A stretch of DNA of 18,486 bases, from positions 1 through 18,486 of the IMG/VR virus record IMGVR_UViG_2880406838_000002. One strand, written 5' to 3'. Below, in pieces: positions 1 through 6,000 of this stretch. This DNA comes from a virus (taxonomy: Duplodnaviria; Heunggongvirae; Uroviricota; Caudoviricetes). Within the stretch, counting starts at the first letter, position 1. The number at the start of each line of letters is the position of its first letter. Made by a program: the position numbers.

Positions 1-3000
1 TTACTTCTTCGCCTCTGCAACCACTTTACTACCCACGCCGCGGTTATTGTATTCCCACATGCGGTTGTAGTTAGTGTCATTCAGATTGCGCTGTATTTCG
101 TCGTTATCATCTACGCTGCCGGTATTACCCGCAAACGGACGATTAGAGATCACCGCATCGGCCCACGGTTTAGCCGTGTTAAAACCTTCGTTGATGGCGC
201 TATCACGGATCACCACCTGACCGTTGGTATTGGCATCAACATCCAGCGAGCGGCCCAGTTGCGCCACACCATCACCGAAAGCATTGAAACGGCTGTTTAC
301 GGCGAGGAAACCGTAGTAAATGTTGGACAGCGTAGCCGGTGCAAACACATACGCTTCTTGCTGAGTACGTGAGTTCACCACGCGGAATTCGGTGTTATCG
401 AACACCACTGCGCCGCGACCAGAAACGATATCCACATCCCCTTCAATGTAGCTGTTGCTCACCAGCGTACGCGGCTGACGATTCGTTTCCAGACGGTTCT
501 GCACACCGCTGTTGGTGACAAAGAAGGTGTTCTGACGACCGAGAATGTTAACGTTGTTAATCTGTACCTGGTCACCATCAGTACGCAGTGCCACCGCCGG
601 ATGGTTACCTGCATCTACGCTATCGCCCAGCGTGTTTTCGATGGTCAGATTTTGCAGTTGCAGGCCATTGTTTTGTGACCAGAAGACCGCAGAGCAGAGA
701 ACACCGATACTGTCGCTGCGTTTGCTCTGGCAGCTATCGTACATATACCACGCTGGTTTACCTGGCATATATTTGCCGCGCGGGTTGACGTCGTGACGCC
801 AGTCGGCAGGGCTCATGCCACCATCAAGGGAAAGCCCAATCTTCACATCAATCGGTTTTTCACCTGTACCGTACAGAGTAATTCCACCCGGAGCGGCAGG
901 GACATATACCGTTCCCTGATACTCACCAGGCATCACGGCAATATACTGGCGCTTGTTGGTACGCTTGATAATTGCCGCATCTACCGCCGCCTGAATCGTG
1001 GTATGCGTTACACCTTGAGTGCCCGCCGGGCCGACAACAAAGTCAGGTTGCGCAGGCAGGGTAATCGGGGAAGGATTCCACGCTGCTGCACCTGGTGTCA
1101 GGGATGCAAAATAGTGTTGAGCATCGAAATTCTGCGCTTCTTTTGCCGACAGAATCGGGCGAGAAGAGGTACCAGGCGCGGTTTGATCAGAAGGACGTTG
1201 ATCGGGCGGGGTTGAGCTACAGGCGGTCAGCGTCACGCCAAAAGCCAATGCCAGCGCCAGACGGGAAACTGAAAATGTGTTCACAGGTTGCTCCGGGCTA
1301 TGAAATAGAAAAATGAATCCGTTGAAGCCTGCTTTTTTATACTAAGTTGGCATTATAAAAAAGCATTGCTTATCAATTTGTTGCAACGAACAGGTCACTA
1401 TCAGTCAAAATAAAATCATTATTTGATTTCAATTTTGTCCCACTCCCTGCCTCTGTCATCACGATACTGTGATGCCATGGTGTCCGACTTATGCCCGAGA
1501 AGATGTTGAGCAAACTTATCGCTTATCTGCTTCTCATAGAGTCTTGCAGACAAACTGCGCAACTCGTGAAAGGTCGGCGGATCCCCTTCGAAGGAAAGAC
1601 CTGATGCTTTTCGTGCGCGCATAAAATACCTTGATACTGTGCCGGATGAAAGCGGTTCACGATGAGTAGATGCAATTATGGTTTCTCCGCCAAGAATCTC
1701 TTTGCATTTATCAAGTGTTTCCTTCATTGATATCCCGAGAGCATCAACATGCAATGTTGTAGGGATGGCAATTTTTACGCCTGTTTTGCTTTGCTCGACA
1801 TAAAGATATCCATCTACGATATCAGACCACTTCATTTCGCATAAATCACCAACTCGCTGCCCGGTAACAACAGCCAGCTCCATTGCAAGTCTTAGCCAAC
1901 ATGGTGATGATTCTGCTGCTTGATAAATTTTCAGGTATTCGTCAGCCGTAAGTCTTGATCTCCTTACCTCTGATTTTGCTGCGCGAGTGGCAGCGACCGG
2001 GTTTGTTGTTATATGGCCTTCAGCTATTGCCTCTCGGAATGCATCGCTCAGTGTTGATCTGATTAACTTGGCTGACGCCGCCTTGCCCTCGTCTATGTAT
2101 CCACTGAGCATTGCCGCAATTTCTTTTGTGGTGATGTCTTCAAGTGGAGCATCAGGCAGCCCCCTCCTTATTGCTTTAATTTTGCTCATGTAATTTATGA
2201 GAGTCTTCTGCTTGATTCCTCTGCTGGCGAGGATTTTTTCGTAGCGATCAAGCCATGAATGTAACGTAACAGAATTATCACTGTTGATTCTCGCTGTCAG
2301 AGGCTTGTGTTTGTGTCCTGAAAATAACTCAATGTTGGCCTGTATTGCTTCAGTGATTGCTATCCTCCTGTCTCGGCCTAATCCAAACTCTTTACCCGTC
2401 CTTGGGTCCCTGTAGCAGTAATATCCATTGTTTCTTATATAAAGATTAGGGGGTAAATCCCGGCGCTCATGACTTCGCCTCGTCCAGCACCACATCCAGT
2501 TACCCTGCTCATTGTTGCCCCCACAAACAGACTTCACGCTCAATCTCGCGGCGAGTCATCAGCCCTTTCCATTGCTTACCGCCAGCGTATGTCCAGCGCC
2601 GTAGCTGATCACATGCGCCTTTGATATCGCCCTGGTTTATTTTGCGAAGAAGCGTCGATGTTCTGAAATTGCCAGCGCCCACGTTGTAAACGAACGAGTA
2701 AAGAGCGCCGCGCGTTGTTTCCGGTATATCGACGTTGATGTACGGGTTAATTTGTCTGGCGACCGTGGCAAGGTCTTTATTCAGGAGGGCTTTGCATTCT
2801 GCTTCGGTATACGTTTTACCGGGCATGATGTCTTTTCCGGTGTGTCCGTGACATACAGTCTGAACCGCCCCGGGTTTCCTGGAGAGTGTTTTATCTGTGA
2901 ACTCAGGCTGCCAGATCATCGTTTCCGATGGAAGCATAATAAGCTTTTTCTGCTTCTGCCGGAGGAGTATGGCCCAGCCTTCCCAGCAATCGTCGATTGT

Positions 3001-6000
3001 TATACCAGTCCACCCACGTTAGTGTGGCCAGTTCCACTTCTGCACGGTTTTTCCAGCTCTTACGGTGTATTACCTCCGCTTTGTAAAGACCATTGATGCT
3101 CTCAGCCATCGCGTTGTCATACGAGTCGCCTGTACTCCCTGTTGATGCCAGTAATCCGGCTTCTTTTAGTCGCTCCGTATAGGCCAGTGACACATACTGA
3201 GAGCCTTTATCGCTGTGATGGATGGTGCCAGACGGACGACGGGCCCACAACGCCTGCTCCAGCGCATCCAGCACGAATGTCGTTTCCATAGACGATGAGA
3301 CCCGCCACCCCACGATGTATCCGGCAAACACATCAATGATAAACGCCACATAGACGAAGCCCTGCCATGTGCTGACGTAAGTAAAATCAGCCACCCACAG
3401 CTGGTCAGGTCGTTCTGCCACGAACTGACGGTTTACGCGGTCGCCTGCGGCAACGGCTTTCCGGCTGATGGTCGTACGGACCTTTTTACCCCGGAGAACA
3501 CCGGCAAGTCCCATAACCGCCATGAGACGTGCCACTGTACATCTGGCCACCCTGATTCCTTCCCGTAACAACTGACGCCAGACTTTACGCACACCGTACA
3601 CCTGATGATTTTCATCGTATACGCGCTGTATCTCTCTCTTCAGCCAGTCGTCGTGCTGCGCACGGGCACTGCGTTTATCCGGATGATGTCGCTGTTGCTG
3701 ACAATGGTAATACGTTGACGGGGCAATATGCAGTTCGCTGCATACCGGTCCGACCCCGTACTGCTCACGCAGCTTATCCAGCAGTGGCATCATTTTTTCC
3801 AGAGGCGGTCGAACTCCGCCTTCGCAAAATAAGCGGAAGCCTGGCGAAGGATATCGTTACTGCGGCGCAGTTCACGATTTTCACGTTCCAGCTCTTTCAG
3901 ACGCTGACGTTCAGCGCTGGTGAGCCCACCATCACCGCCCCCGGTATCCCGCTCATGCTGGCGAACCCAGACACGCAGAGTCTCCGGCGTACAGCCAATC
4001 TTTGGGGCAATGGAACAAATTGCCGCCCACTGTGAGTCATATTCATCCTGACTTTCCAGAACCATACGAATCGCCCGCTGACGGACTTCGGGGGAAAAAC
4101 GAGTATTTTTAGTCATCCTGTTTACCTCTTTCTCAGGGAGTTTAGTCTCCAGGATTTCCGGGGCGGTTCAGTCCATACGCCAACGATATCTTTGTATGGT
4201 ATGTAGCTGACACCTTCCAGACCATCGTTACCACCTGGACCAGTGATGAGCACAGACGCTATGGCAACAGCCCCACCACCAATAGCAGCTGCAACAGCCT
4301 TGCGTAATGACGGCGACATTATTCACCTTTCGCAGCCTTACGCTTATCTTCTTTAATCTTGAAATAAAGATTTGTCAGATACGTCAGCAGGCCAAACAGC
4401 AGACTTCCCAGCACACCTATTGCCACCCACTGGGACGGAGAGACTTTGTCCAGCAGCTGCAGTAACCAGTATCCCGTCCCCACCGCTGACGTGGTGTATG
4501 ACACACCTGTTGTGATTTTTTCCATCTGATGTATGTCTCCGTCACCGCCGACAGAAAATGAAAGTAAAGAAAAACAAAAAAGCCGCCAGTGTCACCCACT
4601 GACGGCCAACGCCGGGAGCCGTGATTATGGCATTCAGGCTCTGCTAAAAATGCCAGATAACATTCCGGCCTCCCCTGATTCAGGTTATAAATGACACAAT
4701 ATCTTGACAACATCCGTCACTGTCTGTCAGAAAATGTACTGCCATATAGAAGCAACATGTGAAGTACATCTATCCTTTTGAGCCAGCACCTCTCCACCGA
4801 AAGTCAGTGCTGGCTGTTTTTTTCCTTAATAAGGCATCTGTAACTGAAACAATCCGCATATTGATAATATATTGACAGGCATCATTGCTGTCTGTGAAAA
4901 ATAAGTCTCTACAAACATATAAGGCCTTTTAGCCAGCGTCTTCTTTTTCAGGTCAGTCGCTGGCTTTTTTTATTATGCTGCCGGTGCATTTATCTCCAGC
5001 ATCAGACTTTCTATCTCAACGCCATACGCTGCATTTTTTGTAACATCCGTCAGCGTCAGCGCATTCAGTCCCAGTGTCAGACTGTCTTTTATAACCTGGA
5101 ATGCCGGGCCAGCCACTCCATTCAGTTTCGGAGTAACCGTGGCACTGCCGGCGGTGAACACCAGCTCCAGCGTCTGCCAGTCGTTACCGTAATCGCCGAA
5201 CTCCCCCAGCTTCGTGTTTCCGGCTTTCCTGTGATGCATCAGATTCACTCTGCCGTCAGTGGTCTGAGTGAAGTACGACATCAGGAACGGATTACCGGTA
5301 CCCGTCATCGCCACACCATCAGGAACGGGAGCATCCGTATACAGATAAATCCCCAGCCCGAACTGATTGTTGGTCAGTGCGCCTGACAGGCGGAACTTAC
5401 AGGTCTGTCTGCCGCCCTGTGTCAGCAGGGTAATTGCGTCATCCACCGGATGCGTCAGGGACCAGGTTTTATTGCTCTGCTTGGTGATCTTAAATACACC
5501 ATCTGACAACTGAATTCCGCCATCCTTAATGCTCCAGCCCTGCGCAGCAGCCTCTCCGGCTGCCGGCAGCAGGGAGATTGTGCGAACGGACGTATCTGCA
5601 GACGGACCCGATGGCGTGTTGCCGCCGGGCGAGGGTTTGATTTCCGGTGCCTTACCACTGATGAAGGCTGAGGTGCGCCCGGCTGCGTTCAGAATAGCGG
5701 TTGCCAGACGATCCGGAATAATGCTCCTGCGCGCCCATGAACTGAAATGTGTCGGGCGGTTTGATGATACCTGGTTTCCATTCGTTCTCGATGCCGCACC
5801 GTAATATCCTGATGCCGGAATATCCGGATCTTCTGCCGGCGCGTTAGTGGCGGTATTGACGCCGTTACCGTCTGTCATGAAGGGCACAAAATAAACGCCC
5901 TCACTCTCCCTGTTTTTATACCCGCCGTACACGGTGTCGTACTGGGTAGCGTATGTATTTTTCCAGTAATACGTCGTGTCACCACAAACCCACGGCACAT

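Follow-up and report, generated by a model that had tools for sequence, protein, structure and literature searches.

In EHEC O111, a degraded lambdoid prophage remnant occupies the lambda attachment site, with ybhC on one side and ybhB on the other; it lies in the window studied here (the whole stretch of 18,486 nt that was analyzed) and in it an IS629 element interrupts R, the endolysin gene of the lysis cassette. The locus raises the question of how this element came to lie in the gene, and whether the loss of a lysin next to an intact holin has any consequence for the host. The original prediction, made from the sequence alone, described a simple transposition that inactivated the lysin, and suggested that the host may thereby better tolerate late-gene induction.

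The element and the endolysin gene that it splits

Reading the sequence directly, we located a complete IS629/IS1203 element of the IS3 family on the minus strand at 2861-4170, exactly 1310 bp in length, with one copy of the target-site duplication, GTC (GAC on the coding strand), at 2858-2860 and the other, GTC, at 4171-4173, which agrees to the base with what had been predicted. The left junction (2860/2861) reads ...ACAGTC followed by TGAACCGCCCCGG..., and the right junction (4170/4171) reads ...CCGGGGCGGTTCA followed by GTCCATACG...; the sequence TGAACCGCCCCGG... is present at both IS629 ends, and fits the terminal inverted repeats of 5'-TG...CA-3' type of the IS3 family. These repeats, at approximately 4145-4170 on the orfA side and approximately 2861-2886 on the orfB side, agree with each other in 22 of their first 26 positions. 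ORF and domain searches identified two minus-strand genes within the element, orfA (3790-4116; 108 aa), with an HTH_Tnp_1 domain, and orfB (2903-3793; 296 aa), with HTH_21 and an rve DDE integrase core. The orfA/orfB overlap of IS629 has an A6 slippery run at 3793-3798, where a -1 frameshift is predicted to express orfB as an OrfAB fusion; PGAP annotates the transposase as a joined 'programmed frameshift' CDS (WP_171877072.1), and the ALIL frameshift-stimulating pseudoknot (Rfam RF01497) is found at 3719-3835 on the minus strand, with 121.5 bits over model positions 1-117 of 117. Two further copies in the window, at 12369-13678 and 18106-18486, match the element base for base. Copies in other genomes that RefSeq annotates as 'IS3-like element IS1203 family' are 99.8-99.9% identical to it, and a partial copy in H18 that carries the RefSeq name 'IS629 family' aligns with it at 96.5%. 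IS1203, which was discovered in O111:H-, is an isoform of IS629, the target duplications of IS629 are 3-4 bp, a range that includes the GTC at R, and 62% of the O157 IS629 copies are located in prophages (PMC3271280).

The insertion lies within codon 50 of R, between AC and T. The predicted split at the catalytic residue T50 therefore stands in so far as the gene is disrupted there, with the refinement that the element is inside the codon and that T50 is encoded in both fragments, because the target site is duplicated. The 5' fragment (4171-4319, minus strand) holds codons 1-49 and 2 nt of codon 50, including the SAR domain, E35 and D44, and runs on into 15 IS-encoded residues to form a 65-aa ORF at 4122-4319, which PGAP labels 'hypothetical protein, missing C-terminus'. 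The 3' fragment (2509-2860, minus strand; PGAP label 'lysozyme RrrD, missing N-terminus') extends from codon 50 to the stop and has no start codon, SAR domain, E35 or D44. Since the gene is split and its 3' fragment is without the catalytic E35 and D44, R is null at the window locus.

Removal of 2861-4173, i.e., the element and one GTC, yields an uninterrupted 165-aa ORF encoding a SAR lysozyme, so that the R21-type enzyme expected from the original prediction is indeed restored. This protein carries the catalytic motif E35-X8-D44-X5-T50 (the E-X8-D-X5-T motif of R21-type SAR endolysin as given in PMC9239132), a Phage_lysozyme domain (PF00959; E=8e-46), and at residues 8-26 a weakly hydrophobic, Gly/Ala-rich N-terminal SAR segment. 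It is 95.2% identical to PDB 3HDE, with three substitutions among the first 30 residues, 96.4% identical to PDB 4ZPU, and 100% identical to the endolysins of Stx2 phages 2851, 1717 and WGPS8, and because of these identities a functional R ancestor appears plausible.

Filled and empty sites among O111 genomes

By itself, a 3-bp match between flanks has a chance of 1/64, and the decisive evidence is provided by genomes in which the site is empty. The restored 1188-nt sequence was found in one piece at the same locus in 12 complete O111 genomes, 99.7-100% identical, with a single GTC, and including the unusual junction between int and R; in related genomes the flanks of the element are thus joined as a continuous lysozyme gene, so that the comparison proposed to refute the original prediction came out in its favor. 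Inspection of the empty site in L002, L007 and L008 gave ...ACAGTC followed by CATACGCC..., and this one GTC, as compared with the two flanking IS629 in the window, bears out a simple transposition with a 3-bp duplication. The filled site, with the same junctions, orientation and duplication, was present in 33 of the approximately 45 O111 genomes having the int-R junction, and the insertion was not found outside the O111 lineage, with R intact in approximately 3,800 other genomes. Between the window flanks and the empty-site strain E2863 there were zero differences over 11 kb, and hence no decay since the insertion.

Linked markers give a direction to this change. At window positions 5406, 6608, 7566 and 9178, the empty strain 8E agrees with Z1323CEC0019, an outgroup-like strain. 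The empty strain 95NR1 has retained an intact ybhH and, at 7566, the ancestral state, and the empty strain E2863, together with all filled strains compared, has the derived states and a 1-nt deletion in ybhH. Based on five characters compared among eight loci, with some of the characters located in recombinogenic prophage, this nested SNP pattern fits and indicates an ancestral empty site and a single gain of IS629. Z1323CEC0019 was also considered as an independent insertion in R and rejected, as its IS1203 copies are elsewhere and it has an intact R and an intact Rz. The R insertion was also set against the head-tail deletion in a four-gamete test for excision, which was uninformative, because the deletion joints differ among 8E, 95NR1, 110512 and the window, and the characters are not comparable. 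In strain 14614, a 15-kb inversion has occurred between the R-located IS629 copy and another copy.

The lysis cassette in a defective remnant

The holin gene S (4319-4525, minus strand) encodes an intact class II holin of 68 aa and S21 pinholin type, matching PF04971 ('Bacteriophage P21 holin S') with E=1.2e-32 over profile positions 1-63 of 64, and the claim of an intact pinholin was correct. Its stop overlaps the R start (TAATG), and the S protein, WP_000411800.1, is common to filled and empty strains. The dual-start motif (S68/S71) was not found in S: the codons upstream of Met1 read ...GDIHQ, with no alternative in-frame start, and the S71-type antiholin form is therefore absent. The predicted S21-type pinholin and predicted SAR endolysin of the remnant resemble S21/R21 of phage 21 (PDB 3HDE/3HDF) and EssD/RrrD of the cryptic prophage DLP12 (PDB 4ZPU) in the E-X8-D-X5-T triad, the Gly/Ala-rich SAR segment and the full-length S match, but differ from these cassettes in that R is split by the IS, Rz/Rz1 is deleted and the S71-type antiholin is missing. 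Pinholins of the phage 21 type, of approximately 68 aa and with two transmembrane segments, form small heptameric channels that depolarize the membrane with no release of cytoplasmic endolysin, a behavior that the remnant S may share.

On the other side of R, alignment to the intact R-Rz cassette in L006 revealed an Rz remnant at 2496-2512 (minus strand) consisting of the first 5 codons (MSRVT); homology stops at 2499, and the remainder of Rz/Rz1 has been deleted. An 18-nt filler (2481-2498) joins the end of R to a lambda-type integrase gene, int (1419-2495, minus strand; Pfam Phage_integrase and Arm-DNA-bind_1), and supplies it with a new ATG. Rz/Rz1, the early/regulatory region and terminase are absent from the remnant, even in the empty-site strains, and R abuts int; the prophage was defective before IS629 inserted. 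Q is intact at 8294-8983, nanS-p is located between Q and S and precedes S within one operon, and IS629 is co-oriented with the late operon, the order being Q, nanS-p, S, R'::IS629::'R, int. Several terminator-like hairpins are present downstream of Q and ahead of S and R. Taken as a hint only, these hairpins make it probable that S and R, which lie behind them, stay silent without the action of a compatible Q; since Q is intact, activation of S in trans or in cis would be possible. A promoter scan was at chance level (7 sites vs 7.9 expected), and the window contains no tRNA genes between Q and S, as are typical of Stx phages.

The redundancy of R was checked in three insertion-bearing genomes, SD134209, 2013C-4081 and E2855, each of which has an intact, 100% nucleotide-identical R at a second locus, annotated with rrrD, holin and lysis protein; in SD134209, the one genome whose gene neighborhood was inspected, this locus is S-R-Rz in another prophage.

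Weighing the explanations, and significance

The explanation that we regard as very likely is a single IS629 insertion in codon 50 of R, in a decayed O111 remnant, and most likely neutral. IS629, as the IS1203 isoform amplified in EHEC, would have transposed once in a derived EHEC O111 sublineage, with the transposase making a 3-bp staggered cut at GTC that led to its duplication, and R is now split into a 65-aa fragment (SAR domain, E35, D44, T50 and 15 IS-encoded residues) and a promoterless 3' fragment. We infer that the insertion is most likely a selectively neutral step in the decay of the prophage by IS elements, because Rz/Rz1, the early region and the packaging genes had already been lost, because the late operon is behind terminators needing Q, and because each of the three genomes examined has a further R that is intact and identical. 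Its lasting effect is mainly structural, with the IS copy acting as portable homology for further inversions and deletions.

It is very unlikely that loss of R was instead selected as a disarmament, allowing the cell to survive expression of the late operon (e.g. nanS-p) while the pinholin depolarizes the membrane without lysis, even though the S-R-int late operon is intact except for R, Q is intact, nanS-p lies between Q and S, and 33 of approximately 45 O111 genomes with the junction have the insertion. R alone may be somewhat costly, as SAR endolysins can lyse slowly without a holin (PMC9239132), but S is untouched and the phage 21 pinholin, once triggered, kills the cell without further help (PMC9239132), Rz/Rz1 was already gone, and descent accounts for a high frequency in a single clonal lineage. 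Moreover, the three filled genomes have identical intact R, confirmed in one to be accompanied by S and Rz, and because of this copy depolarization would still release active SAR endolysin. With a lethal pinholin, an intact R elsewhere, an already defective prophage, and an S and R that are probably silent, the suggestion that the host better tolerates late-gene induction is not supported. We give hardly any credence to the possibility that the insertion was retained since a disarmed lysin lets a resident Q switch on the NanS-p late operon without lysis, with late transcription continuing into transposase and int; if true, IS activity would be coupled to prophage induction.

A reversible switch, in which the empty sites would be precise IS excisions promoted by the IS-excision enhancer IEE, and R would flip off and on in O111 populations, is highly improbable. 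This enhancer, which O111:H8 carries on SpLE1-like elements, stimulates the simple excision of members of the IS3 family (PMC9397093), and precise excision could in principle account for some of the empty sites. These have one GTC and no scar, and in strain 8E none of the three IS copies is present and there is an IS-less deletion joint of the kind that IEE typically leaves. IEE excision of IS600 from lacZ in O121:H19 (PMC9397093) is similar in that an IS3-family element interrupts a STEC gene and scar-free empty alleles coexist, but differs in that the linked markers at R indicate ancestral empty alleles; the ancestral states that the empty strains have, in a nested pattern, at linked SNPs and in ybhH are better fitted by sites that were never inserted than by sites that were excised. 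Dozens of identical IS copies per genome (36-40 matched places per record) are a classic source of misassembly, yet there is next to no chance of an assembly artefact or of a hotspot hit repeatedly and independently: 33 independently finished genomes from several laboratories have the same junctions, orientation and duplication, a perfect duplication with an exact empty site is the signature of real transposition, and the insertion was found in the O111 lineage only, with R intact in the other genomes.

The single, most likely neutral insertion is of a kind already known, and is real, routine and probably inconsequential. Insertions of IS629/IS1203 in prophages of EHEC O157:H7 and of non-O157 EHEC were reportedly described by Ooka et al. 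in 2009. Such insertions in EHEC prophages are also treated by Rump et al. 2011 (PMC3271280), and share with the element in R the length of 1310 bp, the IS3 family, the 3-4 bp duplication and the prophage habitat, as well as the outcome, in which genes are disrupted in some strains and not in others, and the IS copies later mediate deletions and inversions. What differs is the site itself, which in O111 is codon 50 of R, within the remnant at attB-lambda. We found no description of this O111 insertion in papers, although public annotations already mark the pseudogene and the IS, and the literature searched yielded nothing usable in the way of an O111:H8 phylogeny or a catalogue of IS629 sites that includes it. 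The practical value is limited: the R fragments, to which automatic annotation gives separate labels ('hypothetical protein' and 'RrrD, partial'), are better merged as one IS-interrupted pseudogene, and the insertion can be used as a presence/absence marker for subtyping of the O111 lineage. Alone it matters little, but it illustrates cleanly and with full documentation the erosion and reshuffling of EHEC prophages by IS629/IS1203, with insertion, then deletion and then inversion displayed at the locus among closely related O111 genomes.

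An IS629-type element within codon 50 of the endolysin gene

Read directly from the window, the left junction of IS copy 1 at 2860/2861 passes from ...GTGACATACAGTC to TGAACCGCCCCGGGTTTCCTGGAGAG..., and the right junction at 4170/4171 from ...CTCCAGGATTTCCGGGGCGGTTCA to GTCCATACGCC..., enclosing exactly 1310 bp. The terminal inverted repeats agree with each other in 22 of 26 positions, and GTC lies directly outside each end (2858-2860 and 4171-4173). The element carries orfA (108 aa, HTH_Tnp_1) and orfB (296 aa, HTH_21 plus the rve DDE core) on the minus strand, with an A6 run at their overlap and a full-length ALIL frameshift pseudoknot (RF01497, 121.5 bits), and is identical base for base to copy 2 (12369-13678) and to the partial copy 3 (from 18106). 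RefSeq names it IS1203, which is also the name used in O111:H- and is regarded as an isoform of IS629; IS629 generates duplications of 3-4 bp, and in O157 62% of its copies lie in prophages, at sites that vary between strains (PMC3271280).

When 2861-4173 is deleted, the flanks fuse into a 498-nt minus-strand ORF of 165 aa, ending ...CLWGQQ, the product of which matches Pfam Phage_lysozyme (E=8e-46). Of its 165 residues, this restored R shares all but 8 with PDB 3HDE, the SAR endolysin of phage 21, and all but 6 with 4ZPU ("Lysozyme RrrD"); with the endolysins annotated in the Stx2 phages 2851, 1717 and WGPS8 its identity is 100%. Its N-terminal segment is Gly/Ala-rich, and the E-X8-D-X5-T motif that characterizes the SAR endolysin class (PMC9239132) is present as E35, D44 and T50. 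The element entered within codon 50 (AC/T), so that the upstream fragment retains the SAR segment, E35, D44 and a regenerated T50 followed by 15 IS codons, and the downstream fragment has no start codon, SAR segment, E35 or D44. The adjoining upstream gene S (4319-4525, 68 aa) is intact; its end overlaps the start of R (TAATG), and its product matches the Pfam entry "Bacteriophage P21 holin S" over the full length. In contrast to S21 of phage 21, which has an upstream in-frame start, S has a single start codon here, upstream of which (4319-4585) nothing in frame, neither a Met nor a Lys-containing extension, corresponds to the S71 antiholin form. These results bear out the original prediction on the coordinates, length, completeness and target duplication of the element, and on its splitting an R21-type lysozyme at T50 next to an intact pinholin gene.

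Empty sites, filled sites and the order of events

Among 5,426 complete E. coli genomes searched with the restored sequence of 1188 nt (window 2300-2860 joined to 4174-4800), 12 matched it over the whole length in one piece, with an identity of 99.7-100% that reached 100% in nine. These empty-site genomes (E2863, 95NR1, 95JB1, UTME-6, UTAK-13, 7-32 9A, 8B, 8E, SF26 102-1, 2013C-3250, 7-58 72A and 7-55 62A) are O111:H8 wherever a serotype is stated, and every match spans the unusual junction between the R end and the integrase gene. In the loci L002, L007 (strain 8E) and L008, examined in related genomes, the left flank ...ACAGTC runs straight into CATACGCC..., leaving a single GTC. The flanks thus form a continuous lysozyme gene in strains lacking the insertion, and the outcome named as refuting the original prediction did not occur. 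The filled configuration was found in 33 genomes, among them O111:H- 11128 and 110512.

With the related prophage of Z1323CEC0019, an outgroup-like strain with intact R and Rz, as reference for ancestral states, linked characters form a nested pattern across the compared strains. The empty strain 8E has the outgroup states at window 5406, 6608, 7566 and 9178; 95NR1 (empty) is ancestral at 7566 and has an intact ybhH; the SNP states are derived in E2863 (empty), in SD134209 and 110512 (both filled) and in 14614 (filled; left out of the ybhH comparison). Outside the window, E2863, SD134209 and 110512 have in common a 1-nt deletion in ybhH, which as a linked marker is useful for ordering the events. 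The nested pattern fits an ancestral empty site and one insertion in a derived sublineage. Some empty sites may instead be products of excision, as O111:H8 is reported to carry an IS-excision enhancer (IEE; PMC9397093), but excision is not needed to account for the data on the empty strains. The event is recent, given flanks without a difference from E2863 over 11 kb and three identical IS copies.

All three copies are absent from 8E, which has an IS-free joint from the nin-side genes to a truncated tail-tip gene (L007 16392-16422) and an intact 222-bp ORF in place of copy 3 (L007 23731-23952). This state is either basal or the footprint of an IEE-type deletion.

A degraded prophage at the lambda attachment site

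Positions 1-1284 are occupied by ybhC, and the locus ends at ybhB-bioA in related genomes: the window comes from a prophage that occupies the attachment site of lambda in EHEC O111. It is heavily degraded in empty-site strains too: neither there nor in the window were xis, an early/immunity region, replication genes or terminase found, and a lambda-type int begins 13 nt after R. Of Rz, the first five codons (MSRVT) are all that remains. Homology to the normal R-Rz cassette ends at 2499 and to the normal xis-int arrangement at 2480, and an 18-nt filler (2481-2498) replaces the native int start and supplies a new in-frame ATG at 2495. The segment 2481-2512 is a deletion joint, as a result of which int now closes the late operon in the same orientation. 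In the O111 remnant, the late and lysis genes point towards int because of an IS-IS inversion, as seen in Z1323CEC0019 (NZ_CP148401, 7714-19844), where, at the same attachment site, the segment Rha'-Rz-R-S-Q-ninX is bracketed by a pair of IS1203 copies in inverted orientation, which interrupt a Rha gene.

The window's strain additionally lacks the head and tail genes, which are present in 11128, SD134209 and E2863. Copy 2 is flanked by CTG and TGC, without a target duplication, and joins a truncated ninE directly to a C-terminal tail-fibre remnant followed by nleH and cif, marking where the entire head-tail region was lost in an IS-associated deletion. The cargo genes (4973-6823, 9460-10419, 13987-14868 and 15092-15922), for a NanS-p-type SASA esterase, the lipid A deacylase LpxR and the type III effectors NleH and Cif, are intact while phage functions decay, and EspJ lies just outside the window in related genomes.

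Consequences of the loss of R

The filled strains SD134209, 2013C-4081 and E2855 each carry a second R, intact and with 100% nucleotide identity to the restored gene, and the annotation of its locus lists rrrD, a class II holin and a lysis protein; in SD134209, the one of these three loci that was examined in detail, it belongs to another prophage, together with Rz and a holin of the S21 type. Two to six R-like places were counted per genome among the genomes listed with R matches. Once triggered, the phage 21 pinholin is lethal by itself (PMC9239132). Late expression does not become survivable through the loss of R. Strong terminator-like hairpins that include T-runs, recognized only by consensus match, lie on the minus strand at 8248-8227 (downstream of Q), 6936-6918 (upstream of nanS-p) and 4607-4581 (just upstream of S), a layout that agrees with the usual late operon dependent on Q antitermination. 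The remnant has no pR to drive Q, and the late operon is likely silent. On these three grounds, an identical R elsewhere, a lethal pinholin and a probably silent operon, we argue that the insertion is probably neutral, and the proposal that the host better tolerates late-gene induction is not supported.

One downstream effect of the insertion is demonstrated. In 14614 (O111:NM), the match to the window starts at 2859, and the ~15-kb segment between copy 1 and copy 3 (18106-18486), which is inverted relative to copy 1, is flipped, placing the R halves ~15 kb apart at opposite ends of the remnant.

RefSeq already annotates copy 1 and flags "rrrD ... missing N-terminus", whereas the 5' R fragment has no label beyond "hypothetical protein". 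That IS elements inactivate and rearrange the prophages of EHEC is well described, and neither the element nor the lysis cassette departs from known behaviour; events of this kind are already known, and public genomes that carry the insertion have been annotated.
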